Origin: Thermoanaerobaculia bacterium
GTDB taxonomy: Bacteria > Acidobacteriota > Thermoanaerobaculia > Gp7-AA8
Direction: 5' to 3'
Length of the DNA stretch: 32,000 nucleotides
Assembly (NCBI GenBank): GCA_035629395.1
Contig: DASPHZ010000056.1
Span: forward strand, 116,461 to 148,460
Positions 1,592 to 22,553 of the stretch are shown here, piece by piece (the stretch's first letter is position 1; the number at the start of each line of letters is the position of its first letter). Below the pieces are notes generated by a model. That model was not told where the DNA came from. It saw only the letters and a list, made by a program, of their open reading frames with translations, and did no database searches. A program made the translations under genes and the position numbers.

Positions 1592-1733
1592 ACGGTCCTC
1601 CGAGATCTGACGTTTCGCGGCGGCTCCATTGCCACCGACATTCCGTGCAGATGGAAAGACCGCCACGATGTTCCGATGGACCAACGGAAAAAAACTCCGT
1701 AAAACGGAAGACGTAATACCTGATGGTGGAACG

Positions 1734-5634: not shown

Positions 5635-6656
5635 CGGCGATTTCTCGTGAGGAGGACCAGGCTTGCTTTCCGTGAAGAGTCCAATTTCTCTTCGACGTTC
5701 CGTTGCTCGCGGTTTTTCTCCATTCTCCGCAGCCGCTCGCGCGCAAGGCGCCGCATTTTGATGACTTGGCGGGGCGACGCGTGCAGCAGCTCTCCGATCG
5801 CGGCGTCGCTGAGCGGGAGCTCCTTCCACAGCGCCTCGAATTGCTCCACCGGCATCTCCACGGCCGCTGCGATCTCCGGAAGGGTGGCGGTGCGTGTCAG
5901 CGGAAGCAGGCTCAGACACTCGCGGCCATGCGCGTCGCGCAGATTCAGCAGCAGCGCGGCGCGCTGTTTCGGCGCGAGCTGGCGCACGTCTTCCCACAAT
6001 TGCCGCAGCGAGACGCGCAGCTCGAACGCCGTATCGGCCGGCGTCTCCGACGCGAGCTCGTTCGTCAGCGGCACGTCCGCGCGCTGCATTTCGAGATGAA
6101 TGAGTCGCGCCACGGTCTCGACGAGCGTGTCGAGGAGGAGCGGCGCACCCACGCTGCGCAGGATTGCCGGCACGAGCGTGATGAGCTGCGCACGATTCTC
6201 GGCAGTGGGATCGCTGCGCGCCGGCACACTCACGTTGGCCTCGGCCACCGCCTCGCGCCCTTCCCAGTCGCGCAGTCCGCACACGACCGCGCCGTTCGCA
6301 TTGCGCCACGTCGTCAGCTTCGCGTGATGACCGCAGAGGTACTGCAGTTGATTGCGCAGGCGCGCGCGTGCGGGATAGCGCTCGCGCATGCGTTCGTGAC
6401 AACTGTTGTACGCGCACGTGGCGATGTAGCCGCGCAGATCGCGGATGGGCGGCGCGCCGCTGCCACGCAGATCGCGCAGCCGGCGCAACAGATCGACGAG
6501 CGTATCGGAGAGAAGATCCTCCGCCTCATCGCGCGCGATCGATTCGACGATCCGCCGCACCACCGGCCGCGCCACGTCCTGGAGCAGCCGCGCGAGCTGC
6601 CGGTCCGCCTCCTCTTCCGTAAGCGCCTGGAGATACGCGCGCAGCAGATCGTCCAT
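5631..6656 (-). CDS. ECF-like RNA polymerase sigma factor, unusually long (341 aa)
   Basis: A region-2-like segment (DLLSDTLVDLLRRL ... YIATCAYNSCHERMRERYP) and a region-4 HTH-like segment (LSDAAIGELLHASPRQVIKMRRLARERLRR) are present. They are separated by a long insert. The gene is translationally coupled to the anti-sigma gene. Confidence 0.8.
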   Translation of the reverse strand: MDDLLRAYLQALTEEEADRQLARLLQDVARPVVRRIVESIARDEAEDLLSDTLVDLLRRLRDLRGSGAPPIRDLRGYIATCAYNSCHERMRERYPARARLRNQLQYLCGHHAKLTTWRNANGAVVCGLRDWEGREAVAEANVSVPARSDPTAENRAQLITLVPAILRSVGAPLLLDTLVETVARLIHLEMQRADVPLTNELASETPADTAFELRVSLRQLWEDVRQLAPKQRAALLLNLRDAHGRECLSLLPLTRTATLPEIAAAVEMPVEQFEALWKELPLSDAAIGELLHASPRQVIKMRRLARERLRRMEKNREQRNVEEKLDSSRKASLVLLTRNRR

Positions 6657-7020: not shown

Positions 7021-8958
7021 ATGCAGCAGTTTCGATACGACATCCGCAACGTTGCCATCATCGCCCACGTCGACCACGGGAAGACCACGCTCGTCGACGC
7101 ACTCCTCAAGCAGGCCGGCGCCGTCCGTGCGAACCAGCACATGGACGAGCGGGTCATGGACTCGAACGACCTCGAGAAGGAGCGCGGGATCACGATCCTG
7201 GCCAAAAACACGTCCATTCGCTACCTCGTCGATCAGCCCGACGCCCTCGGGCATCCGGTCCATCACGAGCCCACGCACACCGCCAGCGGCCACGATCTGC
7301 CGGCCGAGTTCATCCATCCGGCCGAGGTGAAGATCAACATCGTCGACACGCCGGGCCACGCCGATTTCGGCGGTGAGGTCGAGCGCGTCCTGTCGATGGT
7401 CGACGGCGTCATCCTCCTCGTCGACGCCGCCGAAGGTCCGATGCCGCAGACGCGTTTCGTCCTGCGCAAAGCCCTCGGGCTCGGCCTCCTGCCGATCGTC
7501 GTGATCAACAAGATCGACCGGCCCGACCAGCGTGCGACGGAAGTCGTCAACGAAGTCTTCGATCTGATGATCGAGCTCGGCGCGTCGGACGAGCAGATCG
7601 ACTTCCCGATCCTCTACGCCATCGGCCGCAAAGGCATCGTGCGGCACGAGCTGACCGACACCACCGAGGATTGCCGTCCGCTGTTCGACGCGATCCTCAA
7701 GCGCATTCCGCCGCCCCCGGGCGTGCAGGATTCGCCGCTGCAGCTCCTCGTCAGCGCCATCGACTACAACGAATACGTCGGCCGCCTCGGCGTCGGCCGC
7801 ATCCAGCGCGGCAAGATCCGCCAGAACACGGACGTCGTCCTCATCCTCCGCGACGGCACGCAGAAGAAAGGACGCGTCACGAAGCTGTGGGCGTTCGAAG
7901 GACTCAAGCGTGCGGAGATCGAAGAAGCGGGAGCGGGTGAGATCGTCTGCGTCGCAGGCTTCGCGGACGTCGAGATCGGCGAGACCTTTGCCGCCGCCGA
8001 CGCGCCGGAGCGCCTCGAGCCGATCGCGATCGACGAGCCGACCGTCTCGATGTACTGGATGGTCAACGACTCGCCGTTCGCCGGCACCGAGGGCAAGTAC
8101 GTCACCTCACGCAACATCAAAGACCGTCTCGACAAAGAGCTGCGCAAAGACGTTGCGCTGCGCGTGCGTGAGACCGGTCAGGCCGACCGCTTCGAAGTGG
8201 CGGGACGCGGCGAGCTGCATCTCTCGATCCTCGCGGAGAACATGCGCCGCGAGGGCTACGAGTTCGCCCTGTCGCGCCCGCAGGTCATCCTCAAACAGGT
8301 CGACGGGCAGACGATGGAGCCGTACGAGGCCCTCGTCGTCGACGTCGAGGAAGCGCACGTCGGCACGATCATGGAGAAGATCCAGCAGCGCCGCGGCGAG
8401 ATGACCGACATGGTCAACCCCGGCACCGGACGCGTGCGCATCGAGTTCAAGATCCCCACCCGCGGCCTGTTCGGCATCCGCACGGAGTTCCTCTCCGAAA
8501 CGCGCGGCACGGGACTGCTGTACCACACGTTCCTCGAGTACGGTCCGTATCGCGGCGAGCTCGCCTCGCGCAATCGCGGTGCGCTCGTGGCGAAGGAAGC
8601 CGGCGACACGACCGCGTACGCGATCGAGCCGCTGCAGGAGCGCTCGACGCTCTTCATCGGCCCGGGCCTCAAGGTCTACGGCGGACAGGTCGTCGGCGAG
8701 AACTCGCGCGACGTCGACATGGTCGTCCAGGTCTGCCGCGCCAAGCACCTCACCAACATGCGCGCGTCGGGCTCGGACATGGCCGTCAAGCTCACTCCCC
8801 CGCGCCTCATGACGCTCGAGCAGTGCCTCGAATGGATCGAGGACGACGAGCTCGTGGAAGTGACGCCGGAATCGATCCGCATCCGCAAGCAGCTCCTCGA
8901 CCATTCGCAGCGCGAAGTCGCGGCGAAGAAGGCGAAGAAGGCGGCCGCGGAAGGCTGA
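7021..8958 (+). CDS. typA: translational GTPase TypA/BipA
   Basis: Near-identical G-domain motifs to BipA: [56 protein letters not shown]. The characteristic C-terminal domain is also present ([12 protein letters not shown]...[18 protein letters not shown]). Confidence 0.97.
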
Positions 8959-9013
8959 GCACGCGTCCCGTTTTAGACAGACATCCCTCCTGACGTCCGG
9001 CTAGATTGCCGCC

Positions 9014-9277
9014 ATGCACGTGGCGGTGGCGGCACACGTTCGGACGACGGCGGACGGCGACGGAGCGGTGCTGCTCGATCTCGAGCGCGGCGTGTATCTG
9101 TCGCTGAATCGCTCCGGTGCCGCCATCTGGAGCGAGCTGACGGCCGGCGCTGCGCCGGCGGACGTTGCCGCTCGGATCGCGGCGCGCTGCTCGAAACCGG
9201 TGGCCGAGGTCGAGCGCGACGTGCGCTCCTTCGTGGACGAGCTCGCGCGCCGCGGCCTCGTCCGCGTCAGCGGGTGA
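9014..9277 (+). CDS. PqqD-like RiPP recognition element (lasso peptide B1 protein)
   Basis: An 87-aa protein with the PqqD-family pattern (GAVLLDLERGVYLSLNRSGAAIWSEL ... VERDVRSFVDELARRGLV). It sits immediately upstream of the B2 and cyclase genes. Confidence 0.85.
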   Translation: MHVAVAAHVRTTADGDGAVLLDLERGVYLSLNRSGAAIWSELTAGAAPADVAARIAARCSKPVAEVERDVRSFVDELARRGLVRVSG

Positions 9278-9281
9278 TCGC

Positions 9282-9656
9282 ATGCGCACACTCCTGCTCC
9301 TCCTGGCGTGGCTCGCGTTTCTCGTGACCTCGCTCGCGGTGCGATTCGCCGGATTCACGCGTGTGCATCGGCGCGTGCGCCAATGGCGTGTTTCGCGATC
9401 GCGTCGACGGCCGTCGATCGAGATGCTGCGCGATGCGATCGAAGCGGCCGCACGATGGACGCTGCTTCCCGTGCAATGTCTGGAGCGCGCGGCCGTGACG
9501 ACGTGCCTCTTCCGCACGTTCGGCTACGACGCGGCTTTCGTCATCGGCGTGCGGCGTACGCCTTTCTATGCACACGCGTGGACGGAGCTCGACGGTGCGG
9601 TACTGACCGACCCCGCCGAGCGCGTGCGCGAGCTCGCCGTCGTGGAGCGTTGCTGA
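9282..9656 (+). CDS. lasso peptide B2 leader peptidase (transglutaminase-like Cys protease)
   Basis: The N-terminus has a TM-like segment. Cys/His/Asp triad context typical of lasso B2 proteins is present: QCLERAAVTTCLFRTFGYDAAFVIGV ... FYAHAWTELDGAVLTD. The ATG at 9282 lies 5 nt after the B1 stop. Confidence 0.85.
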   Translation: MRTLLLLLAWLAFLVTSLAVRFAGFTRVHRRVRQWRVSRSRRRPSIEMLRDAIEAAARWTLLPVQCLERAAVTTCLFRTFGYDAAFVIGVRRTPFYAHAWTELDGAVLTDPAERVRELAVVERC

Positions 9657-9657
9657 C

Positions 9658-11484
9658 GTGAGCGTCGTCGCGGGCGTGCTTGCGTTCGACGGCGCTCCCG
9701 TGGCCGAGGAACAGCACGCGCTGCAGGCGTATGCGCGGCGCTACGGCGCGGTGTCGATCGTGAGCGGCAGCGGCGTCACGCTGTTTGCGAACGACACGTT
9801 CGTCACGCGTGACGACGCGGGGCGCGTGCGTACCGCTGTCGCGATCGACGGCCGCGTCGACGTTCTCCAGGCTTACGAACGCAATCCGCACGACTTTGCG
9901 GGCCGGCTCATCGGCGACTTTGCCTTCGCGTTATGGGATGAACCGCAGCGCACGCTCTTCCTCGCGCGCGACGCCTTCGGCTCGCGTCCGCTGTACTGGC
10001 ACGGCGATGCGAAGCGCCTCGTGTGGGCGTCGCACCTCGCTCCCCTCCTCGGACTCGCGCGCGAGCCGCTGTCGATCGACCGCGATTCCCTCGCGGCCTT
10101 CGTCATCCGCGGCGCGATGCGCGACCGCACGCCCGTCGCCGAGATCCGCTCCGTCCGCGCGGCAGAACTGTGCGTCGTACGCGACGGCGTGATGCAGCGC
10201 TCGCGGCACTGGTCGCTCGATCCACACGCCACCGTCGACGTCCGCTCGGATGCAGAGGCGGAGGAGAAGCTGCGTGCGCTATTGAGCGAGGCGGTTCGCT
10301 CGATGACGGGCGACGGACCGGCGAGTGTGCTGCTCAGCGGAGGCGTCGACTCCTCCTCGATCGTTGCGGTCGCCGACGCGGTGCGGCCGGAACCGCCGGT
10401 GCAGACGATCTCCTGGGTTTTCGAAGCGTCGCCCACGTCGGACGAGCGGGAGTTCGTCCGCGCGGTCGAGACACATCGTGGCCGCAGGGGCGTGCACATC
10501 GGCGAGCGCGAACAGGCGCTGCTCGAATTCGATCCCGAAGATCCCGGCACCGAGATCCCGACGTCGTACGTCTGCTTCGCGCGACGCTGCGAGGCCACGC
10601 GTGCCGCCATGCGCGCGGCGGGGTCGCGCGTGCTGCTGACCGGCATCGGCGGCGATGACGTGCTGTACGGCGACTTTGGGTTCATCGGCTCGATTGCGGA
10701 TGCGCTCGCGCGCGGGCGCGTGCTGCGCGCGCTGTCGGAAGTGCGCAAGTGGGCGCCGCATGTCGGCGTGTCGCATCTGCAGTTGCTGTGGCGCTCGGGC
10801 ATCCGGCCGCTGAGCGGTGCGGCGCCGGTGTCGCTGGTCGCGCCGTGGTGGTCGCGGGAGTTTGTCGAACGGATGCACGACGGCCGAGGATGGCCGTCTC
10901 GACCGCTGCCGAGCCGCCGGTTCGACCTGCAATGCTTCGAGGGACTCGTCGGCTCGATGGCGCGGCGCTGGTATTTCGAGCACGACGAGATCGTGACGCG
11001 CGAGCCGTTTCTCTACCGGCCGCTCGTCGAGTACTGCTTCGCGTTGCCGTTCGAGCAGAAGCTGCGTCCCGGCGCGACGCGCTCGATCCTCCGCCGCGCA
11101 TTACGCGATCTCCTGCCGCCGGCCATCCTGACACGCCTCTCCAAGTGCGGGCCGGACGAAGCGCTGTTGCGTGCCGCGCAAAGACGCGCGGGTGCGCTGC
11201 GCGCGCTGTTCGCCGAGGCGCGAGTGGTGCGTCACGGCTTCGCCGACGGCACGGCCATCGACGCCGCGCTGACGAAGATCGCGCACGGCTTCGACGCCGG
11301 TGTCGCCTTTCTCCTCCGCCTCATCGCCCTCGAGCTCTGGTTGCGCTGGTTCGAGCGCCGCCCTCTCTCATCCACCGCCGCAGTCACTGAAGTCAACGGA
11401 GGAATTGCATGCACGAGCACGAAATCCAGAATGACGAGTACGAAGTCCCGACCATCCTCGAGCTCGGCGACGCCGCCGACCTGA
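9658..11484 (+). CDS. asparagine-synthetase-like lasso peptide cyclase (C protein)
   Basis: The PP-loop motif LLSGGVDSSSIV is present, the overall layout is AsnB-like, and the N-terminal Cys nucleophile is absent (starts MSVVAG). The GTG start is 2 nt after the B2 stop. The last ~40 codons are S/T/P-rich and overlap the precursor gene out of frame. Confidence 0.9.
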   Translation: MSVVAGVLAFDGAPVAEEQHALQAYARRYGAVSIVSGSGVTLFANDTFVTRDDAGRVRTAVAIDGRVDVLQAYERNPHDFAGRLIGDFAFALWDEPQRTLFLARDAFGSRPLYWHGDAKRLVWASHLAPLLGLAREPLSIDRDSLAAFVIRGAMRDRTPVAEIRSVRAAELCVVRDGVMQRSRHWSLDPHATVDVRSDAEAEEKLRALLSEAVRSMTGDGPASVLLSGGVDSSSIVAVADAVRPEPPVQTISWVFEASPTSDEREFVRAVETHRGRRGVHIGEREQALLEFDPEDPGTEIPTSYVCFARRCEATRAAMRAAGSRVLLTGIGGDDVLYGDFGFIGSIADALARGRVLRALSEVRKWAPHVGVSHLQLLWRSGIRPLSGAAPVSLVAPWWSREFVERMHDGRGWPSRPLPSRRFDLQCFEGLVGSMARRWYFEHDEIVTREPFLYRPLVEYCFALPFEQKLRPGATRSILRRALRDLLPPAILTRLSKCGPDEALLRAAQRRAGALRALFAEARVVRHGFADGTAIDAALTKIAHGFDAGVAFLLRLIALELWLRWFERRPLSSTAAVTEVNGGIACTSTKSRMTSTKSRPSSSSATPPT

Positions 11485-11620: not shown

Positions 11621-12298
11621 ATGGAACAAGCCGCACGCTGTCCGCTTCGCGTTCTCGTCTTCGCCGCCTCCCTGCGCCACGATTCGCTGAACGCGAAGCT
11701 CGCGGCGCTCGTCGAAGGGATCGTGACGCGGCACGGGGCGGAGGTCGTGCACGGGTCGATGCGCGACTTCGACTGCCCGTCGTACGACGGCGACGTCGAG
11801 ACAGGCGCCGGCATCCCCGCGGGCGCGCAGAAATTGCGCGACGCGCTCCATGGCTGCGACGCGTTCGTCATCGCCTCGCCGGAGTACAACGCGTCGATGC
11901 CGGGCATCCTCAAGAACGTCGTCGACTGGACGTCGCGCTTCCGTCCGCAGCCGTTCAACGGCAAGCAGGGGTTCCTCCTGTCCGCCTCTCCGTCGATGGC
12001 TGGCGGCAACCGCGGCCTCTGGTCGCTGCGCATCCCCCTCGAGCACCTCGGCGCCCGCGTCTATCCCGACATGTTCTCCCTCCCGCAGGCGCACGAGGCC
12101 TTCCGCGAAGATGGCCACCTCACCCGCGAATCGACGGAGAAGCGCCTCGAAACGATCGTCTCCTGCTTCCTCGACATCACCGAGGCGAGCAAACACTACG
12201 GCCGGATGAAGAAACAGTGGTTCGAGTTCCTCGGCGAGCACCCGAACGAGGCCACGGACCGCGTCGAGGCGACGGAGGTCACGGCTTCGCCGGCTTGA
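11621..12298 (+). CDS. NAD(P)H-dependent FMN reductase family protein
   Basis: Flavodoxin-like FMN_red pattern: RVLVFAASLRHDSLNAKLA ... DAFVIASPEYNASMPGILKNVVDWTS ... GKQGFLLSASPSMAGG. I prefer the ATG at 11621; the TTG at 11603 lies inside the terminator. Confidence 0.85.
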   Translation: MEQAARCPLRVLVFAASLRHDSLNAKLAALVEGIVTRHGAEVVHGSMRDFDCPSYDGDVETGAGIPAGAQKLRDALHGCDAFVIASPEYNASMPGILKNVVDWTSRFRPQPFNGKQGFLLSASPSMAGGNRGLWSLRIPLEHLGARVYPDMFSLPQAHEAFREDGHLTRESTEKRLETIVSCFLDITEASKHYGRMKKQWFEFLGEHPNEATDRVEATEVTASPA

Positions 12299-14837
12299 AC
12301 TCCGGTCGAATGTCGGCCGCTTCCACGAGGATGTAGCCGGCCAGCGCGAGGATTTGCGGGATGGCACGGACCATTGCGCGATCGACGTCTTTCCACTGCG
12401 TCGGGAGCTTCGACCACGGCACCAGATACGGACTGTGTTTGGGACTGTCCGTCGCCTCATCTCCTTTGACGTACCCAGCGGCCTTCTTGCGATTCATCCA
12501 GATGTCGTGCTCCATCTTCGCGAGCTGCTCGTACTCCGCGTCGGTCAGTTTCCGCTCTTCCGCACTTCCAGCGGGAGCGATCGTGTACCCGGCATTTTCG
12601 AGCTTCCGCGGAATCCAGCGGACGGTTCCGCGATTCGCTTCTTTCGCGTGCTCGGGGAGCTTCTCGTACTCGACGAGGAGGTTGTGACGCCTCTTCCCGT
12701 CGTTGCGAACTTCCGCGTAATGCCAACCCTGTTTCGTCTTCGTCTCGCAAAACACGTCATGAGCGTATTTCGCCTGTTTTTCGAGCACCTCGATGTCGTC
12801 TGTGAACCGCGGCACGTGCGTCTCGCTGACAAAAGGCAGTTCGACGTGCAGAGCCATTTGCGGCTCCGGCGGCAGACTGGAGCTCTCGAAACGTTTCCGT
12901 CCAGCCAGCATGCTCATGGCGATGACGGACTCGAGGGATCGTGCCCCGTGCAGATACGTTTTGGTGGTCAGGAATGCCCGCAGGACGCCGGGTGCAATCC
13001 GCAGAGTTTCGTCTTTTCGGAAAAGATCTTTGCAATGCCGCAGGAGCATCGAGCGCAGCAGAATGGCGCGGCGAATGAGGTAATGCGGATCGCCGTTCGG
13101 ATTGCGCCTGTTCGGCCCGATGACGTTCAGGAATCCTTTGAGCCGGCTGACGAAGTCCGGGACCTTCAGCGCTTTCCGCTCCTCGGTGGAACCGGGCTGC
13201 ATGAAATCTTCGATGGAAGCCGCGGTTCCTCCTGCAAAGACGAAGATGCTCGTGCCGATCGGATGGGTGACCTGGTCTTCCTGAAACTCACCGTCCTGCA
13301 TGGGACCGATGAAGTAGCGAAGCCACCCAAGCGGTTTCCCTTCGTGCGTCGTATCGAACTCGTCCCAGAACACGAGTGGGATTTCTCCCTTCAGTGACAC
13401 GTCACGCACCTGATGAAACGCACCGTGCAGATCTTCATAGCGGGCGAATTGCGTGAGGTTGAACGTCAACCGCTTGATTTTTTTCTGTCCGCCGATCGAC
13501 TTTGCGATCTCTACGACCCCAAACGACTTGCCTGATCCGGGCGAGCCGAACACCGCAATCGACAGCGGCTTGCTCGGGGTGCGATCGACGTACTCCGACA
13601 ACAGTGCTTTGACACTGCGGTACGCCTCGATCTCCTCTCGGTCGACCGTAAACAGGTCGCCGATGCGCAACTGCGGAACCTCGGCCAGAGTCTGGTCGGG
13701 ACCGTAAATCGCGACTCGCGCCGCGAGCTCGTAGAGCGGATCGTCGGATTTCCCGTCCGGAGCACTCCTCGCCGCCGTGCTGAGACGGTCTTCGAGGATG
13801 CTCCAGCTCTTGCGGCTCGGATCGTGGACGACGGCAGTGGAAACGCTCTCCTTCCTTTTCAACACGGCCTGCGTAATCGCGGGAAGTGGCATCTCCGGAT
13901 TCGCTTTGTCTTTTCCGAAGCCGCTTTCGAACAGCGCACGCATTCCCGCGATCGCGCGCGGCAGAGCGTCCGCCAGTTGCGGCCAGGTGGGATGGAGCAT
14001 CACTTCGTGAGTGACCGCCGCGGCGGCGATGGTCGCGTAGCCGATCATGTGTCCCGACGGCTTCTTCGGCGGCGCCCACTCACGCTCCATCAGTGAGGGA
14101 TCAAACACCAGGCGCGGTGGCTCATCGTCGCGTGGCAGCACCATCGCACCCGCGGGGCCGAACGAAACGATGAGGTACTTACAGCGCCGCAATGCGTGCA
14201 GCGACGTGCTTTTTCTGATCTCCGTGACGACGTCCTGCGCCGTCCGCTCCCACGACACCCGCCGAATCAACTGAATCTCTTTCCGGCGCAGATCGTCAGC
14301 CGTCATCACGACGATCAATCGATCCGCGTGCTTTGCCGCGAGGTGCTGCCACAGTTTTTCGTGAAATGCCGGTACCGACGTCTTGAGGATCACCCACGGC
14401 GTGTGTTTGCCGTTGCGAATCGCGGCAGGCCAGAACTTTTCCTTCATCTCGAAGCCGAGGTCCGAGTCGAGCAGCGCCACGACCGCGGCCTCGGGATCGT
14501 CGTGAGAAATGTCGTGCGGAGGCGTGCCCTTGCTGCGTTCGACGCCGAGAAACTCGTGGACTCGCAGGACGTCATCCGTCGCGGACGTGACGACGGTATA
14601 CGTCTGATGAACAGAGGCATCACTGGCAGGACGAACGATCCCGCGAACGATTGCGTCAGGAGCGAGCTGTCGGATCAGATCTTCGAGCAGCCATGCGCCG
14701 CCGTACTGCCGAACGCGATGCACGTCTCCTGCGTCCGCCCATGACCGCGTCGCCACGATCTTGTCGCGATCGACCGAGAGGTTCCAGTCGATCATCACGT
14801 CCCCGGCCACGACCACGGTGTTTGCTGAGCTCATCAC
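12279..14837 (-). CDS. three-part protein: ribokinase/pfkB-like N-terminal domain, AAA+ ATPase, two C-terminal RyR domains
   Basis: - N-terminus: VVVAGDVMIDW, YGGAWLL, LIVSFGPAGAMV resemble pfkB-fold strands (weak, by eye).
- AAA+: Walker A FGSPGSGKS (13524-13547), Walker B LVFWDEFD, sensor-1-like FVFAGGT.
- C-terminus: two RyR-like repeats (AKYAHDVFCETKTKQGWHY...LVEYEKLPEHAKEANR and AKMEHDIWMNRKKAAGYV...PYLVPWSKLPTQWKDVDR), about 12324-12791.
- Start is either GTG 14837 or ATG 14834. Confidence 0.85.
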   Translation of the reverse strand: MMSSANTVVVAGDVMIDWNLSVDRDKIVATRSWADAGDVHRVRQYGGAWLLEDLIRQLAPDAIVRGIVRPASDASVHQTYTVVTSATDDVLRVHEFLGVERSKGTPPHDISHDDPEAAVVALLDSDLGFEMKEKFWPAAIRNGKHTPWVILKTSVPAFHEKLWQHLAAKHADRLIVVMTADDLRRKEIQLIRRVSWERTAQDVVTEIRKSTSLHALRRCKYLIVSFGPAGAMVLPRDDEPPRLVFDPSLMEREWAPPKKPSGHMIGYATIAAAAVTHEVMLHPTWPQLADALPRAIAGMRALFESGFGKDKANPEMPLPAITQAVLKRKESVSTAVVHDPSRKSWSILEDRLSTAARSAPDGKSDDPLYELAARVAIYGPDQTLAEVPQLRIGDLFTVDREEIEAYRSVKALLSEYVDRTPSKPLSIAVFGSPGSGKSFGVVEIAKSIGGQKKIKRLTFNLTQFARYEDLHGAFHQVRDVSLKGEIPLVFWDEFDTTHEGKPLGWLRYFIGPMQDGEFQEDQVTHPIGTSIFVFAGGTAASIEDFMQPGSTEERKALKVPDFVSRLKGFLNVIGPNRRNPNGDPHYLIRRAILLRSMLLRHCKDLFRKDETLRIAPGVLRAFLTTKTYLHGARSLESVIAMSMLAGRKRFESSSLPPEPQMALHVELPFVSETHVPRFTDDIEVLEKQAKYAHDVFCETKTKQGWHYAEVRNDGKRRHNLLVEYEKLPEHAKEANRGTVRWIPRKLENAGYTIAPAGSAEERKLTDAEYEQLAKMEHDIWMNRKKAAGYVKGDEATDSPKHSPYLVPWSKLPTQWKDVDRAMVRAIPQILALAGYILVEAADIRPEFKPAKP

Positions 14838-14882: not shown

Positions 14883-17447
14883 TCACGGCACCAGCTTCAC
14901 TCCCAATTCCCGCAGAATCGGATCGATCGGCAGGACGATGGCCGTCACTTTGTCCGAGCCCCAGAGGATGCCGACGAGGTCGTTGTTCTCGTTGAAAACG
15001 GGGGCGCCGGAGTCGCCGCCTTCGGCCTGGAAATCGGTGAGGATCTCGTCGTCGCGAACCTCCACCACATGGCCGGTGGTGATGCCGGAGCCGCGGGCGA
15101 TCATGCGCAAGGTGTCGCCGGAACGCACGGTCGCCGTCCGGCCGGAGAGGCGGCCGAAGCGCCAGAGTGAGGAGTCGATCGTGACGCCGGGGCTCAGCGC
15201 GACGAGCGCGCCGGAGCGATAGTCGTCCTTCCCCGCGCGGGCGAACGTCCCGATGACCGACCGCGCCGTGCCGCCATCGCCGGGACCGGGCTGGATGACG
15301 CGGTCGGATTTGCCGCTCACGATGAACGGCAGCGTCAGCGCGTAACGCGTCCTGCCGTCGGTCACCGCGCAACAGAGGCTGCCGGTCGCGCCGCCCGCGG
15401 AGCCGATGCTCGCGCCGAGGCGCAGGGGACGGGTCATCGAACGGAGATTCCAGCGCGTGGCGTCGAGCAGGCGCTCCGACTGCGAGGTGATGACCCGGTT
15501 GAGCACCGGCGTCATCGCGCGCTGCACGGCCTGCGTGGCCTCCACCTTCTGCTCGACGAGCTCCTTTTCGGCCGCATCCCTCGCTTCGAGAGCTGCCTGC
15601 AACTCGCTGTTGCGATGTTCGACGAGCGCCAGCGCCTGCAGCGTTTTTTCCTTCTCGGCTTTCAGCTCGGCGGCGTACTTTTGCATCGCGTCGTAATCCG
15701 CTTTGTTGACCTTGCCCAGCAGTTCCTCCGCACGCGCGGCCGCGATCTTCGCTTCGATCTCTGCTTTGTCGGCTTCCCGCTCGGCTTTGGCCTTGTCACG
15801 CTCGCTGCGCAGCTTCATCCATTGCGTGTACATCACCGCCAGCACGAGCACCGCGACGAGCGCCAGCGCGAAATGCTTCACGCGACGCTGCGAATTCACC
15901 AGCTTCCGGCTCTCCCGTACGAGCGCCTGCAGCGACTCGCTCGCGCTCAGATCACGCGCCTCTTCGCTGCTCAGCCACGCCTCCGCCTCCTCCACCTGCT
16001 CGCGATCGAGATACCCGCCGCGGCGATCGAAGCGCAGCCATTCATCGGCGAGCGCTTCCAGCCGGCGCAGCTCGACGAGCGCGCCGCGTTTGGTCTCCAG
16101 CCAGCCGACGAGCAGCGGCCAGTTGCGGATCAGCGCTTCATGCGAAACCTCGACGGTGTCCTCGTCGCCGCTCTTCCCTTTCGTACGGCGGATCAGCTTC
16201 GATTCCTCGAGCTTCCCCAAAACCTCGGCGATGCGTTGCGGATCGTCGCCGATCGATCGGACCAGCATACCGACGCGTACGCGATTGCTCGTCAGCTCCG
16301 CGCCCGCCGCCGCGCGGACCATGCGCAGCAGCACGCGGCGCATCGTGTCGCGCGATTGCGGCGTGAAACCGCGATAGACCTCGTCCGCCGAACGCTCGAG
16401 CGCCGCCAGTCCGCCGCCGAGCTTCTTGTACGCGGCGAGCGTGAGGCGATTGCGATCGCGATCCTTCCACAATCGCCACAGCGTGAACTGCAGGAGCGGC
16501 AGCGCACTCGCCTCCCCTTTCACGTCCCGGATCAGCGCGTCGGTGAGCCCCGGCTCGAGCTTCAGCTTGATATTGGCCGCCGGTTTTTCGATCGCTTCGC
16601 GCAGCTCGTCTTCGTCGAGCGCGGTCGCGGCGATGCGGCCGGCGCTGTAGACCTTCTGCAGTTCCGGAATGGTGGTGAGGCGATATTCGTAATCACTGCG
16701 GATCGTAATGACGACGCGGCAGAGCGCACCACTCGCGAGCGCCACGAGACGCCCCGCGAACGAAGAGCGCACCTGATGGTCGTCACAGAGCGTGAAGAGC
16801 TCCTCGAACTGATCGACGATCACGACCAGCGTGCGCCCGGCTCCCGCCTGCAGCAGCGCGTCGATGCCGGCCAGACTCTGCAGCGGATCGCTGCCCGGCG
16901 TGACCGGATCCGCGTAGAGCCACTGCTCGCTTCCTTCGATCGCACCGTCTTTGAGCGCGGGAATGATGCCGGCCAGCACGATCGACGACTTGCCGCTGCC
17001 GGACGATCCCGTCACGCCGACGAAATGCGACTCCCGCAGCCTTGCGAGGGCCGCGTCGACCGCGCGTTTGCGGCCGAAAAACTTCTGGCTGTCGCTTTCG
17101 CGGAATGCCGTCAGTCCGACGTACGGACAGAGATGCTCCTCGAGCTTTTCCGCGAACGAGTTGTCGAACTCCGCGAGTGTGGAATCGTTCACGCCGAGCG
17201 ACGCGCGCACGAGCGTGGTCGACCAGTAGTCGATGAGACCCTGCGCCGCATCGCGCTGCTCGTCCGCGTCGAGGTACACACCGGTCAGGCGCGCGCGGCG
17301 GATGAACAGCCGCGCCTCGTCCGCGACGTCCGTGACCGACATGGCCTTGCGCTGCCGCGTGAGCAGCGAGGTGTGCGTCGCGCGCAGCTCCACGATCGAC
17401 GGGAACGCTTCCTTCACGGTTTCCGCAGTGACAGGGGTCTCGCTCAT
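14883..17447 (-). CDS. STAND-type P-loop NTPase (nSTAND-like), then TM helix, coiled coil and C-terminal trypsin-like domain
   Basis: - NTPase: CPYVGLTAFRESDSQKFFGRKR precedes Walker A GSSGSGKS (16986-17009); Walker B is LVVIVDQFEELF.
- Winged-helix-like segments: LPLLQFTLWRLW and VSHEALIRNWPLLVGWL.
- TM helix HFALALVAVLVLAVMYTQWM (15816-15875), then a K/E/A-rich coiled coil.
- Trypsin-like domain with GDSGAP (Ser codon 15009-15011).
- The ATG at 17447 overlaps the TIR gene stop (ATGA). Confidence 0.88.
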   Translation of the reverse strand: MSETPVTAETVKEAFPSIVELRATHTSLLTRQRKAMSVTDVADEARLFIRRARLTGVYLDADEQRDAAQGLIDYWSTTLVRASLGVNDSTLAEFDNSFAEKLEEHLCPYVGLTAFRESDSQKFFGRKRAVDAALARLRESHFVGVTGSSGSGKSSIVLAGIIPALKDGAIEGSEQWLYADPVTPGSDPLQSLAGIDALLQAGAGRTLVVIVDQFEELFTLCDDHQVRSSFAGRLVALASGALCRVVITIRSDYEYRLTTIPELQKVYSAGRIAATALDEDELREAIEKPAANIKLKLEPGLTDALIRDVKGEASALPLLQFTLWRLWKDRDRNRLTLAAYKKLGGGLAALERSADEVYRGFTPQSRDTMRRVLLRMVRAAAGAELTSNRVRVGMLVRSIGDDPQRIAEVLGKLEESKLIRRTKGKSGDEDTVEVSHEALIRNWPLLVGWLETKRGALVELRRLEALADEWLRFDRRGGYLDREQVEEAEAWLSSEEARDLSASESLQALVRESRKLVNSQRRVKHFALALVAVLVLAVMYTQWMKLRSERDKAKAEREADKAEIEAKIAAARAEELLGKVNKADYDAMQKYAAELKAEKEKTLQALALVEHRNSELQAALEARDAAEKELVEQKVEATQAVQRAMTPVLNRVITSQSERLLDATRWNLRSMTRPLRLGASIGSAGGATGSLCCAVTDGRTRYALTLPFIVSGKSDRVIQPGPGDGGTARSVIGTFARAGKDDYRSGALVALSPGVTIDSSLWRFGRLSGRTATVRSGDTLRMIARGSGITTGHVVEVRDDEILTDFQAEGGDSGAPVFNENNDLVGILWGSDKVTAIVLPIDPILRELGVKLVP

Positions 17448-18868
17448 TTCAGTGCCTCGACGACCTCGGCCAGCGGCCTGCCGATCGTGCCGAGCTCCTC
17501 GCATTGCTCTTTCAGGTTCGTGTCGACGGTGAAGAACCGCGTGTTGGCTTTCTTGCGGAAGCGCACGAAGAAGCGGTTCATCTGCGCGGGATCGCCCGCG
17601 GCAATGGCTTCGTCGACGCTGCGCGCGTCGTCGCGGAGCGGCTGCACCCAGTCGCCCGGCGACGCCCACAGCACGGTCACCATCTTCAGGAGATCGCTCC
17701 AACTGATCTCCAGCTCGCTCGCGTCTTTCGCCGAGATGTTCGTCTCGATGCGCCGCATCTCCACCTCGACGTCCTGCCACAGGCGGTGACCGCGGACGAG
17801 AATGCCGAGGTTTTCTTCGAGGGCTTCCATGACATCGCGGGCGTGCTCGAGGGAGAGCACTTTCTCCGCGGCCATGCCGAGCTCACGGCCGGTGCGGCAG
17901 ACGAACGAAAGCGCGTCGATGACCGCTTCCAGCTCGAGATTGGCCGCCGCTTCGCCGAGACGGGCGTCGATGCGCGCGGGCTCGTTCGCAAGCACGCGAT
18001 TGAGGAGCCGCGCCGCGCCGCGCACCCCTTTTTCGTCGCGCGCCTTCACCGCCACCGCCAGCGCCTTCTGCGCCTCGGCCAGCGTGTCGATCCACGCCAT
18101 GCGCATGTTCTCGAACATCGGCCTTGCGTCGATCTCGCGCAGCGTGCCGATGGCCCGTTGCAGGTCGTTGGAGTAGTAGTCGATGGCGTCGACGGCAGTG
18201 TCGTCGTCCGCGATGCGCGGTGCGTCGCGGAGGATCGCCTCGTAGACGTGCAGTTGCACGTGGTGCAACTGGTCGTGCACGGACTTGAACGCATCGAGGC
18301 GGTGGATGAGGCCGACGATCGTGTTGAAGCGGAGCTCGTATTCGAGGAGTTTCTCGCGCACGTGTCCCGCGGAGATGAGCTCGGACATCGTCCGGAGCCC
18401 CTCGCCCACGGGTCTGGTGCGGACGACGTCGGGCGCGCCGAGGGGACGGGCGAGGCTGCGGACGAGCTTCGCCATCTGATCGCTGATGGTCGCGTCGTTG
18501 ACGCAATCGACGTACGTGCGCAGCGACAGCCACGGCGGGGCGTTGCATTTTTCGCGGAGGATCGGGATCAGCCGTCCGCGTGCGCCGGTGGGATCCTGCT
18601 GCACGCTGAGCATCCCTTCGAACTGCGACCACTCGCTGTCGACCCAGTTCTGCGTGAGCACGGCCACGGTGCGGCGCGACTGGAGGACGCCGTCCGTCAT
18701 GTTCGTGATCGAGCTGTTGCCGGCGGCGAAACCGTCCTCATCGACGAGCACGCGCAGGCCGCCGTCGCGCAGCGCCTTCACGAGCACGCCCGAAACCCAC
18801 GCCTTGTCTTTGTGGCTGTAGCTCACGAAGACGTCATGGGGGTACTCCGCCGGTGTCGTGGCGCTCAT
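17444..18868 (-). CDS. TIR-domain protein with ~330-aa all-helical C-terminal domain
   Basis: TIR motifs are HDVFVSYSHKDKAW, TVAVLTQNW and DSEWSQFE (putative catalytic Glu codon 18617-18619). I prefer the ATG at 18868 because the codons upstream of it (to GTG 18919 / ATG 18910) have low GC3. Confidence 0.88.
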   Translation of the reverse strand: MSATTPAEYPHDVFVSYSHKDKAWVSGVLVKALRDGGLRVLVDEDGFAAGNSSITNMTDGVLQSRRTVAVLTQNWVDSEWSQFEGMLSVQQDPTGARGRLIPILREKCNAPPWLSLRTYVDCVNDATISDQMAKLVRSLARPLGAPDVVRTRPVGEGLRTMSELISAGHVREKLLEYELRFNTIVGLIHRLDAFKSVHDQLHHVQLHVYEAILRDAPRIADDDTAVDAIDYYSNDLQRAIGTLREIDARPMFENMRMAWIDTLAEAQKALAVAVKARDEKGVRGAARLLNRVLANEPARIDARLGEAAANLELEAVIDALSFVCRTGRELGMAAEKVLSLEHARDVMEALEENLGILVRGHRLWQDVEVEMRRIETNISAKDASELEISWSDLLKMVTVLWASPGDWVQPLRDDARSVDEAIAAGDPAQMNRFFVRFRKKANTRFFTVDTNLKEQCEELGTIGRPLAEVVEALK

Positions 18869-18965
18869 GGATCCCTGGATGGACGGATTTCCATGAGTAT
18901 AGCCCACCATCCTCGGCACTCCACGTGCACGCCCCGTTTGTCACACCTTTACAGGAGGCTGAACG

Positions 18966-19739
18966 ATGAGAGTCGCCGTCGCCCTTTTCGCCGCCATCGT
19001 GCTCGCGCTGCCGCTCGCCGCTGCAAACGACCAGGAAGTCGAATACGAACAACTGCTGCTCACGGTCGCGCCGTCGATCGTGCATTGCGCGCGCGACTCG
19101 CGGTACGAGACGCGGCTCATCGCGTACAACGGCGACGAGAGCGCGCGCACGCTCTGTCCGGCAGGGCGCTGCATGGCCGTCGAGCCGAACACCGGCGCCG
19201 AGTTCACCGGCGATTACGCGGGCGGCGTGCCGCTGCCGGTGTTCATGTACGTGCCGAAGGAAGAAGCGGCGCGCATGCGCTTCTCGTTGATGGTCGAGAG
19301 CAGCGAGCTCAATCATCCCGAGGATCGCGCGTACACGGAATTGCCGATCGTGCGGGCCAGCGACTTCCGCGAAGGGAAGATGCAGTTCATCGGCGTCCGC
19401 CTCGACGAAGACTTCCGCCAGACCGTGCGCACGTACGGTCTCGACGGCAGGCAGACGGGACACCTGATCATGCGCGTGTACTCGCTGAAGACGGGCGAGC
19501 TCGAGCACTCCTGCCTGCACTACGTCGGCCCGCTCTCCGAGACGCCGGAACTGACCGCGGACGGCCGGCAGTTGCGTCCCTCGTTCGGAATGGAATGCAA
19601 CATGGCCGACCACGTCCACGCGCACGGGCAGAAGGTGCGCATCGAGCTCGAGTCGCTGACGCCGGGACTGAAGTACTGGGCGTTCCTGTCGATCACGAAC
19701 AACAAGACGCAGCACTTCTATACGGTGCTGCCGCAGTAG
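18966..19739 (+). CDS. secreted protein of unknown function
   Basis: GGAGG lies 7 nt before the ATG. The signal peptide is MRVAVALFAAIVLALPLAAA. GC3 is high throughout. No domain was recognised. Confidence 0.7.
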   Translation: MRVAVALFAAIVLALPLAAANDQEVEYEQLLLTVAPSIVHCARDSRYETRLIAYNGDESARTLCPAGRCMAVEPNTGAEFTGDYAGGVPLPVFMYVPKEEAARMRFSLMVESSELNHPEDRAYTELPIVRASDFREGKMQFIGVRLDEDFRQTVRTYGLDGRQTGHLIMRVYSLKTGELEHSCLHYVGPLSETPELTADGRQLRPSFGMECNMADHVHAHGQKVRIELESLTPGLKYWAFLSITNNKTQHFYTVLPQ

Positions 19740-19753
19740 CTCGCCCGCGTCAT

Positions 19754-19853
19754 CCTGAGCCGCGCAGACGGCGAAGGATCTCGAAATGCGCGTCCGCAGC
19801 CACGGGCCATGGGCGTCGCATTTAGAGCCCCTTCGCCGTCGTTCCGGCTCAGG
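19754..19853. repeat. nested palindromic (REP-like or bidirectional-terminator-like) element between convergent genes
   Basis: Three arm pairs were read directly:
- CCTGAGCCG (19754-19762) with CGGCTCAGG (19845-19853)
- GACGGCGAAGG (19767-19777) with CCTTCGCCGTC (19830-19840)
- AAATGCG (19784-19790) with CGCATTT (19817-19823). Confidence 0.45.
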
Positions 19854-19865
19854 GAGACGAGACGG

Positions 19866-22472
19866 CTACTCGGCGAGCGTCATGAGCCACACGTCCGCTT
19901 CCGTCTTGCGGTCGGAGAAGACGAGCGTGCGGGCGTCGGCGGAAAGGCTCATCGACGCGATGGGGAACGGCGCGTGGACGTCGCGGATGGCATTCGTGTC
20001 GATGTTCACGATGCGCAGGCGGCCGCCGTCGCCGTAGAGGATCTCCCGTCCGCCCGGCAGCCAGATCGCGCGCGCGCCGGTCTCGGTGAGCTCGCGATAC
20101 GTCTTCGTGGCGAATGAGTAAACGGCGATGCCCGGCCGGCTCAGCTCCCCGGCCAGCATCGTGCCGTCCGGCGACCAGGCCGTGAACTGCGCTTTGCGTC
20201 CTTGCGGTCCCGGCGGCAGCGGCGTGATGCGCCCGTCCTCGAGCACGTACGTGTTCTCGTCGTTGTAGAACGAGAGGCGTTTTCCGTCCGGCGCAACGCC
20301 CGGATACCACATCGATTGCGTCGTCGAATGCGGCACGCGCGCGAGCCCGCTGCCGTCGGCGTGGATGCTCCAGATCTCGTAGCGTCCGGTCTCGCGCTGC
20401 GAGTAGAAGTAGATCGTCGAGCCGTCGGGCGACCACGTCGCGCCGCGGTCGCGCGCCATGTCGTTCGTGAGCTGGCGGATCTCCCCCGTCGCGATCTCGA
20501 TCACGTACAGGTCTTCCTGCCCGCCGCGATTGGTGATGGCGACGAAGCGCCCATCCGGCGACACCTGCGAGCTGAAGACGAGGAACGAGCCCGCGACGAT
20601 CGGCCTGGACTCGCCGAGAATCGCGCCGGATGCGGGATCGAACGGCGCGCTGCGCATCGACTCGCTCTGATCGATCGACGCGAACAGCATGCGCTTCCCG
20701 TCCATGGCCATGCTGAAGTGGCCGCTGTAGCGCGCGGGCGTCGTCACCGGCTCGGGCGTGCCGCGCGGCTTGCCGCTCTCCTCGTCGATGCGCACGCGCC
20801 ACAGATTCATCGCGCCGTTGCGATCGCTGCCGAAGTAAAGATGTTGACCATCCGGCGACCAGGCCGGATTCCAGTCCACCGCCACGTCCTCGGTCACCCG
20901 CACCACCGTCGACGCCGGATCCTTCGCGTTCGGATCGATGGTCCAGAGATCGCGCTGCGCGCCGTCGCCGATGATGCTCCAGTACGCGATGCGCGAGCCG
21001 TGCGGCGACCACGCCGGCTGCACGGCGTCCGACGCGAGCAGCTTCCGCTCCGCGCCGCTGGCCACGTCGACGACGAGGAGGCTGCTCATCTTCCCGCGCG
21101 ACGTCGGCACGTACCCCACCGGTTCAGTGGCGCACGCGATCTGCTTGCCGTCCGGCGACCAGGTCGGGTTGAAGCACGAGGCGGTGATGCGGCGATTCGA
21201 CTCGCCTGTCGCGCCCATGATGAAGATCCCGCCGCCGTCGCACTCGGAGCGGTAGGCAATCATCGACCCGTCGGGGGAAAACGCCGGCTGCGAGTCCGCG
21301 GCGCGGCAGCGTTTGGTGAGGTTGATGGCATTGCGGCCGGTGACGCGCTGCAGATAGATGTCCGCGTTCGGACCGCTGCCGCGCGCGAAGACGAACGTCT
21401 CCCCGTCCGGCGCGATCGACGGCGCGAGATCGAGCCCGTCCTGCACGGTCAGTTGCGTGAACGACGCCGTCACCGCCTGCGCACCGGCGCTGCGGCCGCG
21501 CAGCAGCCACCCGGCCGTGAGTCCCACGATCAGCAAGGCCAGGGCGCCCCCGATCGCGGCCCACCGCTTCGGCGAGATTGCCGGCACTTCCATCGTCGGC
21601 ACCGTGCCCGAAGCGGAGGAGAGCATCTCCAGATGAAACGCGAGATCGCGTGCGGACTGGAAGCGCTGCTCCGGACTCTTCTCCAGGCAATGCCGCACGA
21701 CGCGATCGAGTCCCGGGGTCACATTCGGATTCGCGCCGACGAGGTCCGGCGGATCTTCGCGCAGGATCACCGACATCGTGTCGGCGGGCGAGGTGCTGCG
21801 GAACGGATGCTCGCCGGCGAGCATCTCGTACATGACCGTGCCGAGGGAGAAGATGTCGCTGCGATGGTCAACAGCTTGACCACGCACCTGCTCGGGCGAC
21901 ATGTAGCCGACGGTGCCGATGACGGTGCCGGGCGAGGTGTCCTGCTCCATCGTGTCGTCGTCGGCGAGGGCGTGATCGTCGGTGCGCAGTTTGGCGACGC
22001 CGAAATCGAGGATCTTCACGCGCCCGTCTTTGGTGACGAAGAGGTTCTCCGGCTTGAGGTCGCGATGGATGATGCCGCGGTCGTGCGCGGCGGCGAGTCC
22101 GTTCGCGATCTGGATCGCGTAATCGACCGCTTTGCGGATGGGCAGCTTCATCGGCACGCCGTTGTCGCGGAGGCAACTGCGCAGCGTCTGCCCTTCGAGC
22201 AGCTCCGTGACGATGTACGGCTTCCCGTCGGCGCTCCCCGCGTCGAAGATCGTGAGGAGATTCGGATGATTGAGCGCACCGACGGCACGCGCTTCCTGCT
22301 CGAAGCGATGCATGCGGTCCGCGAACTTGGCGAAGGTCGGCGGCAGGACCTTCAACGCGACGTCGCGCCGGATGCGCGGATCATGAGCGCGGTACACCTC
22401 GCTCATTCCACCCGTTCCGATCCGCGTCACGATTTCGTACGGACCGAGGCGCGTGCCTGGTGATAACGACAT
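19866..22472 (-). CDS. Ser/Thr protein kinase fused via one TM helix to a TolB-like (PD40/WD40-like) beta-propeller
   Basis: - Hanks kinase motifs: [46 protein letters not shown].
- TM helix: [21 protein letters not shown].
- Repeated P.(W/F)SPDG. motifs, typical of PD40 repeats.
- I prefer the ATG at 22472 because the codons upstream have low GC3. Confidence 0.92.
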
Positions 22473-22510
22473 TGGACGGAGGAGATTGTACGTGGTTCGC
22501 GCTGCGCGCG

Positions 22511-22553
22511 CGGTTGTCGGTTGTCGGTTTTCCACCCGGCCGCATACCCGTTG
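22511..22553 (+). repeat. three tandem heptamers (CGGTTGT CGGTTGT CGGTTTT) running into copy A of the motif CGGTTTTCC-N12-ACCCGTTG
   Basis: Read directly. Copy A spans 22525-22553. Confidence 0.5.

Follow-up and report, generated by a model that had tools for sequence, protein, structure and literature searches.

What does a bacterial protein do that joins a ribokinase-like fold, an AAA+ ATPase and a pair of ryanodine receptor (RyR) repeats in one chain, and how did its gene reach its present place? Both questions are raised by a gene on the minus strand of contig DASPHZ010000056.1 from a Thermoanaerobaculia bacterium, within a stretch of 32,000 nucleotides (nt; positions 116,461 to 148,460 of the contig) that was analysed as a whole and is called the window here. 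The reading we favour, with a probability of about 0.45, is that the gene encodes a horizontally acquired immune-type protein, in which the paired RyR repeats (the R12 domain) would serve as input, the AAA+ module as switch, and the ribokinase-fold domain as output or as a second sensor. The parts of the gene are listed below in window positions, with residues (aa) and, in brackets, the basis of each assignment.

12279..14837, minus strand: whole gene, encoding a ribokinase-fold, AAA+ and tandem RyR (R12) protein (open reading frame, database protein P0001, full-length homologues)
13803..14837 (aa 1-345), minus strand: N-terminal ribokinase/pfkB-like-fold domain, specific to the family (Foldseek, conservation)
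12858..13577 (aa 421-660), minus strand: AAA+ ATPase module (motifs, Foldseek, profile)
13524..13547 (aa 431-438), minus strand: Walker A motif, GSPGSGKS (sequence)
13353..13373 (aa 489-495), minus strand: Walker B motif, VFWDEFD (sequence)
12567..12812 (aa 676-757), minus strand: RyR repeat 1, with pocket residues H693, F696, H718 and N735 (PF02026, alignment to RyDEP and RyR Tad)
12312..12560 (aa 760-842), minus strand: RyR repeat 2, with pocket residues H777, W780, S802 and D819 (PF02026, alignment to RyDEP and RyR Tad)

The gene is a single long open reading frame (ORF) of 852 aa, which begins with GTG and ends with the stop codon at 12279-12281. Its G+C content at the three codon positions (0.64/0.43/0.75) is typical of coding sequence and full-length homologues span residues 3-848 of the product, so we regard it as a real gene. 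The likely start is the ATG at 14834, which gives 851 aa, because a database protein 100% identical to the product (P0001) has this length. An AlphaFold2 model built from 58 homologues reached a predicted local distance difference test score (pLDDT) of 87.4 and a predicted template modelling score (pTM) of 0.87, and a Foldseek search of this model against PDB returned three sets of matches, namely R12 domains, pfkB-family kinases and AAA+ proteins. Together with two Pfam RyR matches and the AAA+ motifs, these folds bear out the three-part architecture proposed in a preliminary description of the window, which had been made from the letters alone.

At the C-terminus, PF02026 matches twice with 88.6 bits (cut-off 27.4), or with 94.5 bits when the C-terminus is isolated, and a profile of the family aligns with Repeat12 of RyR2 in four stretches (E = 2e-34), so the RyR similarity that had been read by eye is recovered by profile searches. 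In the Foldseek search this region matched Repeat12 of RyR3 (9l9b, 6uhe) and a Bt-hRyR chimera (E = 1e-8; template modelling (TM) score for the target 0.6-0.7), and the matched RyR3 structures include complexes with ATP, ADP, AMP-PCP and dantrolene. Animal R12 binds ATP, ADP and AMP-PCP, judging from PDB entries 6uhh and 9l9b and from paper titles. The C-terminus of the window protein has both the two-fold R12 structure and the paired PF02026 repeats, and it resembles the animal Repeat12 (R12/RY12) in its tandem two-repeat organisation as well as in sequence and fold. In animals, however, the domain belongs to a Ca2+ channel of 5,000 aa; here it forms the end of a soluble AAA+ protein.

Prokaryotic RyR domains were long a curiosity, and the preliminary description held that their function in bacteria and phages was essentially unknown. 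This statement has been overtaken by two 2026 preprints, according to which the RyR domains of phages either bind 2'cADPR and 3'cADPR, two isomers of cyclic ADP-ribose (cADPR), or hydrolyse them (PMC13232231; 10.64898/2026.06.04.730250). RyDEP, the product gp78 of mycobacteriophage DyoEdafos, is an R12-fold glycosidase whose gene lies inside an operon for the salvage of nicotinamide adenine dinucleotide (NAD), and most of its homologues bind cADPR-isomer signals at nanomolar affinity without cleavage (PMC13232231). RyR Tad (Pectobacterium phage CB1 gp68) sequesters 3'cADPR, 2'cADPR and cADPR via H129, W132, H154, K170 and D171 (10.64898/2026.06.04.730250). The window protein shares with RyDEP and RyR Tad the PF02026 match, the R12 fold and a link to TIR or cADPR, and its pocket positions align with their ligand residues. 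In contrast, the phage proteins are homodimeric, single-repeat, anti-defence sponges or glycosidases of only 138-183 aa, whereas the window protein is host-encoded, 852 aa long, carries, like the animal receptors, a tandem repeat, and has AAA+ and ribokinase-fold domains in the same chain; it is not a small viral homodimer of the RyDEP type. A tblastn search of 50,697 phage records with its R12 region yielded three weak matches and no close phage relative.

In an alignment of both phage gene products with repeats 1 and 2 of the window protein, three of the four RyDEP ligand positions (H75, W78, H100 and D117) are kept in each repeat, the exceptions being N735 in repeat 1 and S802 in repeat 2. 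H777 and D819 fall on H75 and D117, the catalytic residues of RyDEP, which means that a His/Asp dyad of putative catalytic function is present in repeat 2. Conservation was examined among 135 relatives, and in repeat 1 it amounts to 93% for the first His, 90% for the aromatic residue, 73% for the second His and 83% for Asn; in repeat 2, the values are 94% for His, 93% for Trp and 81% for Asp. At position 802, 11 of the 16 family members adjacent to a TIR gene have His and the clade of the window protein has Ser, and the full H/W/H/D set is found in repeat 2 of 11 of these 16.

The N-terminal domain is related to kinases of the pfkB family by fold. For residues 1-350, Foldseek found HldA (4e8w/4e84; E = 5e-7 to 2e-6) and the Thermotoga ribokinase 1vm7 (E = 2e-6), and these structural alignments to the AlphaFold2 model comprise 330-368 columns with a TM score for the target of about 0.5, as befits a ribokinase-like fold of the HldA and RbsK type. 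However, residues 1-353 have zero Pfam matches even at E <= 10 and zero NCBIfam matches, and a profile of 42 N-domain sequences searched against the PDB sequences found no pfkB chain at E <= 10. Since both searches were empty, membership in the pfkB sequence family (PF00294) was rejected and the likeness of fold retained; of the earlier label "pfkB-like", the structural half stands and the half that concerns sequence family does not.

Kinases of the pfkB family carry their catalytic Asp in a C-terminal anion hole with the motif DTxGAGD. Neither the anion hole nor the catalytic Asp was found in the N-domain, as the preliminary description had said of the GAGD motif. The corresponding position, assigned by motif and secondary structure (helix N-terminus after G266) without superposition, is residue 267, which is Y in 80, N in 19, L in 14 and K in 6 of the 135 relatives. 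Invariant residues of the domain are G12, D13, G46, R92, G98, D124, S195, W196 and G306, while D182, R184, E197 and E251 are retained in 132-134 of the 135 sequences and G47 of the GG motif in 87%. The N-terminal GD..D strand and the GG motif (D17, G46-G47) lie at the places of the ribokinase sugar site, again by motif and secondary-structure placement without superposition. The domain is like HldA and RbsK in its alpha/beta fold, beta-sheet lid, GD..D strand and GG motif, and unlike them in that it lacks a detectable sequence relationship, has the family-specific motif SWERTAQD and no DTxGAGD, and is fused to an AAA+ module. Because it keeps the sugar-site motifs but not the catalytic Asp, it may be an enzyme of non-canonical type with a ribose-containing substrate, or else act as a second sensor. 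The earlier suggestion of a ligand-binding domain in place of a kinase is plausible. Binding of NAD-derived nucleotides is better supported for the RyR domain than for this domain. In the 150 listed of its 1,227 clusters at 50% identity, short fragments aside, the N-domain always stands N-terminal to the same AAA+ module, which makes the two together the core of the family.

In the AAA+ module, G431, G434, G436 and K437 of Walker A and D492, E493 and D495 of Walker B are invariant among the 135 relatives, and the window protein has both the GxxGxGK[ST] and the hhhhDE patterns. Candidate Arg-finger or sensor residues are R565, R590 and R633 (all invariant) and R589 (134 of 135), and the nearly invariant T538 (129 of 135) is a further candidate. 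Given the invariant Walker motifs and these arginines, ATP hydrolysis by the module is expected. The window protein does not reach the gathering score of Pfam AAA (PF00004; 16.3 vs 21.2 bits, E = 0.013), and some relatives bear precomputed PF00004 matches. The centre of the model is matched by the AAA+ proteins FtsH, ORC2, ClpA and dynein in Foldseek, and an AAA+ profile searched against PDB gave weak matches, confined to the Walker A-B half, to the classical clade (Mpa/ARC and 26S Rpt, E about 1e-3). Judged by its sequence, this is a divergent AAA+ module without clade assignment; the segment PMQDGEF, which at first looked NtrC/MoxR-like, was given no weight.

The architecture had been called unusual, which does not hold in the sense of rare. 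Among clusters at 90% identity there are 2,136 relatives, full length in most of the listed cases, and the family is found in at least 327 GTDB species. Its hosts include Chloroflexota, Planctomycetota, Acidobacteriota, Chlorobi, Clostridia, Actinomycetota, methanogens and other archaea. Where relatives are named, they are called "hypothetical", "RyR domain-containing" or "AAA family ATPase". The R12 domain is usual in the family, though sometimes degenerate, doubled or missing. In P0025 (~785 aa) it is shortened and degenerate and the H..W motif is lost on reading the sequence; P0028, P0031, P0034 and P0035, also of ~785 aa, have no Pfam RyR match, and the length of other members is 690-790 aa. 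P0042 (1,090 aa) contains four RyR repeats, and P0033 (1,251 aa) has an extended N-terminus with a precomputed CHAT match. A fungal protein from Hortaea werneckii (P0199, 869 aa, representing 35 sequences) contains an AAA-RyR region with 31% identity over 72% of a TIR-AAA-RyR query, which suggests that the family has been transferred into eukaryotes.

The window protein does not belong to a known defence family, as its matches are far under the respective cut-offs: the PADLOC scan gave P-loop-only matches at E >5e-4 (QatA, E = 6e-4; mad8), and the NCBIfam scan gave QatA with 19.9 bits against a cut-off of 600. Among the PADLOC models there is none for this family. In the literature, no paper was found that describes the cellular family or ties it to TIR, and neither Kaur et al. 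2020 nor Iyer et al. 2022 mentions RyR or ribokinase.

Neighbour ORFs were clustered in 80 GTDB loci and several metagenomic ones, and immediate neighbours were scanned against Pfam; densities of TIR and SLOG-like genes were taken from six-frame ORFs, with TIR detected by a locally built hidden Markov model. The Pfam family most often met right beside the gene is TIR, which accounts for 13 of 79 downstream neighbours and 6 of 76 upstream ones. The number of TIR ORFs per 100 kb is 35 at distances below 300 bp, 3.2-3.7 at 0.3-3 kb and 0.55 at 5-8 kb, and for SLOG-like ORFs it is 44 below 300 bp vs 0 at 5-8 kb. A TIR or SLOG-like gene lies less than 300 bp away in 35 of 83 loci. This distance holds for TIR in 16-17 loci and for SLOG-like genes in 21, 16 of which have the SLOG-like gene directly downstream on the same strand, mostly without TIR.

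The SLOG-like neighbour is a protein of ~195 aa, present in 19 loci and mostly directly downstream (e.g. L011:10608-11189), with the motifs GVTGHR...LAEGADR...WDG..G.GGT; it is so labelled from sub-threshold Pfam matches to YpsA, YAcAr and DprA (E = 0.003-0.04). The same domain is joined to four transmembrane helices in ~10 loci (e.g. L004:10744-12597), and this protein may be what Yirmiya et al. list as "4TM SLOG" among their untested Thoeris effectors. In 13 loci, proteins of ~600 aa combine two transmembrane helices, TrkA_N (RCK) and a C-terminal RyR domain (2TM-RCK-RyR), their genes lying one or two genes downstream of the family member (L055:11285-13117, L017:7672-9504, L042:11234-13048 and ten more loci); they look like R12-bearing ion channels, a prokaryotic parallel to ryanodine receptors. 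DUF4062-NACHT-TPR/WD40 nucleoside triphosphatases (NTPases) occur in 22 loci and SLATT_1 proteins in three. Modules of CHAT with ECF-sigma or anti-sigma genes were also seen within 7 kb of family members in two loci (L001, L090).

Gene fusions are independent evidence for TIR and R12 working together. TIR-AAA-RyR fusions (P0121, P0122 and P0149) and TIR-RyR fusions (P0185 and P0197) both exist, and in a Methanobacteriaceae locus (L076) the TIR-AAA-RyR protein P0121 (10706-12688) directly follows a canonical family member. As TIR replaces the N-domain in these paralogues, the N-domain would stand in the place of an enzyme. The family has a layout in the effector-NTPase-sensor style of tripartite NTPase receptors (the STAND/NLR-like Avs, NACHT, the AAA+ protein RdrA of RADAR, and QatA), and it is also like them in that TIR may replace the N-domain and that it is co-located with NACHT/nSTAND genes; unlike the NTPase of STAND receptors, its own is a divergent AAA+.

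The association has the logic of Thoeris systems (types I-XI), in which a TIR gene (ThsB) stands beside an effector that binds the ADP-ribose (ADPR) signal, such as the SIR2-SLOG protein ThsA (10.64898/2025.12.03.692087); members of our family adjoin TIR genes in some loci and SLOG-like or SLATT-type genes in others. However, no described Thoeris effector has an R12, AAA+ or ribokinase-fold domain, and the words "RyR" and "AAA" are absent from the main text of Yirmiya et al. 2025 (10.64898/2025.12.03.692087). Table S1 of that paper lists "ATPase" and "4TM SLOG" as predicted, untested effector types. The TIRs of its "ATPase" type are ~30% similar to the TIRs of our loci, which is a generic level, and neither listed type could be tied to the family. 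A further difference from Thoeris is that half of the family, and the clade of the window protein, have no adjacent TIR.

In the window itself, two genes lie directly upstream of the target gene.

14883..17447, minus strand: nSTAND1 NTPase ending in a trypsin-like domain; 854 aa, counted from the ATG at 17447 (Pfam nSTAND1, E = 1e-100; Trypsin_2, weak)
17444..18919, minus strand: TIR-domain protein, 491 aa (Pfam TIR_2, E = 3e-22)

The three genes are co-directional, with TIR 2.6 kb upstream of the target and nSTAND1 between them. The TIR stop codon overlaps the nSTAND1 start (ATGA, a gap of -4), and the nSTAND1 stop is 45 nt before the target start. A scan for promoters and terminators found nothing over shuffled expectation, and no terminator-like site on the strand of these three genes. 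The usual position of the catalytic Glu is filled in the TIR protein (SEWSQFE, a conserved Glu column), as judged from the motif, and the protein is a candidate maker of an ADPR-type signal. The nSTAND1 protein is a possible functional partner of the target, though not an obligatory one. In the 80 GTDB loci, no family member has orthologues of the window's TIR and nSTAND1 proteins at its side, so the association of the family with TIR holds at the level of domains only.

Three orthologous loci show how this arrangement arose. In L092, the flanks are 77-88% identical to those of the window (Ser/Thr kinase, 257-aa ORF, TIR, nSTAND1, FMN reductase and AsnB; 80% for TIR), and a divergent second family member (7843-10293), 46% identical to the window gene, adjoins the orthologous TIR-nSTAND1 pair at a different site, across the FMN reductase gene. 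L093 and L094 contain BipA (92% identical to that of the window) and a TIR-nSTAND1 pair (~50% identical), but no gene of the RyR family. Taken together, these loci indicate that TIR-nSTAND1 is an independent two-gene module, and that the target came in, or was replaced, separately. The pair is likely an NLR-like conflict system in its own right. That two distinct family members lie next to it points either to a functional link or to a hot spot of integration, and for the gene of L092 the choice is between xenologous replacement and such a hot spot. The pair is kept in all three loci, and BipA adjoins it in two.

Base composition agrees with a horizontal gain of the target gene, which is supported by these loci and had already been suspected from low G+C. 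The two 60-nt lines counted by hand for the preliminary description were exact (48.3% and 53.3%), and the locally lower G+C was confirmed by sliding-window analysis and by G+C at third codon positions (GC3). The gene has 60.6% G+C vs 66.6% for the whole window and is the lowest-G+C stretch of 2.56 kb in the 32 kb, the next-lowest elsewhere having 63.8%; its GC3 is 0.747 vs 0.862 +/- 0.027 in 14 other window genes (z = -4.3). Across the family, the G+C of the gene follows that of its flanks (slope 0.92, r 0.97), so the low value belongs to the clade and locus of the window and not to the family as such. In the three of the six closest relatives that were measured, the gene is 3-4.5 G+C points under its flanks. 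As for mobile elements round the gene, no tRNA was found, and flanking repeats are no more than short matches at chance level.

Some other features of the window were recorded. An ORF of 257 aa at 18966-19739 on the plus strand, divergent from the TIR gene, has no Pfam match but a strongly coding-like composition (GC3 0.89), and its orthologue in L092 is 88% identical and at the same place. Between it and a Ser/Thr kinase-PD40 gene (19866-22535, minus strand) lies an imperfect inverted repeat of 43 nt (19748-19859; 79% complementary, 26-nt spacer), possibly a bidirectional terminator. A TPR-CHAT protein of 1,059 aa (1629-4808, plus strand) adjoins a sigma-70-like gene (5631-6656, minus strand).

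From the above, the window protein is probably a host-side reader of ADP-ribose-type signals, because TIR and SLOG immune genes adjoin the family in many genomes. The data establish which domains are present, the conserved motifs and pocket residues, the adjacency of TIR and SLOG-like genes, the TIR fusions and the horizontal gain; what the ligand is, which way the signal runs, what the output does and whether phage defence is served are inferred in the scheme that follows. The C-terminal R12 domain would be the input and would bind a nucleotide of the ADP-ribose type, the most plausible candidate being a cADPR isomer from TIR proteins such as that of the TIR-nSTAND1 module, which lies 45 nt to 4 kb upstream. 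The ligand in R12 would then control the assembly of the AAA+ module, its ATP hydrolysis, or both, and the module would act as a ligand-controlled switch or motor that drives the N-terminal ribokinase-fold domain. This domain, whose place is taken by TIR in paralogues, would be the output, or else a second sensor for a ribose ligand. As for the family as a whole, we would tentatively, and at slightly less than even odds, count it among the nucleotide-signalling conflict (anti-phage) systems, as large, uncharacterised cytoplasmic proteins.

A bolder form of the same idea, which we hold to be doubtful, is that R12 is the native host receptor for TIR-made cADPR-type signals. The family would then be an undescribed and widespread class of signal-gated AAA+ proteins, a new Thoeris-like branch in bacteria, archaea and some fungi, with an N-terminal pseudo-kinase providing a new nucleotide-directed output. 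Related R12 domains would gate the 2TM-RCK channels in the same operons, and the whole would be a prokaryotic precursor of the link between cADPR and ryanodine receptors in animals.

Several observations weigh against the receiver scheme. The TIR-nSTAND1 pair occurs without the target gene in L093 and L094, so the target is not obligatory in that module, and in L092 the family member and the pair are not transcribed together. All six of the closest relatives (57-67% identity) stand alone in unrelated contexts, with no TIR or SLOG neighbour, and about half of the loci have neither gene next door. Each repeat of the window protein misses one of the four RyDEP positions (N735, S802). Since animal R12 binds ATP and ADP, the ligand could also be an ordinary adenine nucleotide. 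Finally, the TIR-adjacent and SLOG-adjacent sets of loci are nearly exclusive, with an overlap of two loci, and a protein that takes the place of TIR as signal generator fits this pattern at least as well as a receiver does.

The last point leads to the alternative that survives best, although we consider it unlikely: the protein would act upstream, its N-domain making or modifying a nucleotide messenger that is read by the SLOG-like, SLOG-like four-transmembrane or 2TM-RCK-RyR proteins. It would then take the place of TIR (ThsB) or of a CD-NTase, while its own R12 would sense a phage-derived or metabolic nucleotide or give feedback. The 21 loci with a close SLOG-like gene, usually without TIR, are in line with this, as is the resemblance of the SLOG-like transmembrane and channel-like R12 proteins to membrane effectors. 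The N-domain has many charged residues that hardly vary (D13, R92 and D124 invariant, and the four near-invariant ones given above), and it stands where TIR stands in paralogues. However, the canonical catalytic Asp and anion hole of pfkB kinases are missing, the SLOG label of the neighbours comes from matches below threshold, there is no SLOG-like gene next to the window gene or those of its closest relatives, and no product can be named.

Less probable still is a housekeeping role, in which R12 would read ATP/ADP as proposed for RyR1, the N-domain would read a sugar or nucleoside, the AAA+ module would remodel a target, and the immune neighbours would be coincidental. The nucleotides seen with animal R12, the wide spread of the family, and the solitary position of the closest relatives among housekeeping genes would all suit such a sensor. 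Coincidence, on the other hand, does not account well for the roughly 60-fold enrichment of TIR and SLOG-like genes at the gene borders compared with 5-8 kb away, for the TIR fusions, or for the NACHT/STAND (DUF4062) proteins in 22 loci; patchy spread, xenologous replacement and atypical G+C are likewise traits of defence genes.

We think it equally improbable, or nearly so, that the protein is a sink or off-switch for the host's own signal, in which repeat 2 of R12 would sequester or hydrolyse cADPR isomers and so end TIR signalling, with the ribokinase-like domain recycling ADPR. Its analogue would be the ring nucleases of type III CRISPR systems, and the alignment of H777 and D819 with the RyDEP dyad, their conservation (94% and 81%), the NAD-salvage operon of RyDEP and the adjacency of the family to TIR genes are compatible with it. 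But most RyDEP homologues that have these residues bind and do not cleave, a simple sponge or hydrolase would hardly call for 850 aa and an intact AAA+ motor, and variants without a functional R12 persist (the degenerate P0025 and others of 690-790 aa).

That the protein is an ordinary pfkB sugar or nucleoside kinase with accessory domains is very improbable, because the fold matches to HldA and ribokinase and the conserved G46 and G47 are set against empty Pfam and PDB-profile searches, a catalytic-Asp position filled by Y, N, L or K, and a domain that never occurs outside this AAA+ fusion in the top 150 of its 1,227 clusters.

Our favoured reading remains the immune-type protein outlined above. 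The window also offers an apparently clean case of xenologous replacement beside a conserved TIR-nSTAND1 module. The 2026 work on RyR domains covers the phage side only, and the host side is undescribed. The family treated here, host-encoded and more than 2,000 proteins strong, couples the R12 pocket to an ATPase motor, and adjacent or fused genes tie it to TIR, SLOG-like, SLATT-like and channel-like partners. Should R12 be a signal receptor, the family would be a new and broad class of effectors or regulators of TIR immunity, and it would provide a defined system in which the role of a catalytically atypical ribokinase fold in immunity can be studied. It would also offer an evolutionary route to the debated control of animal ryanodine receptors by cADPR.

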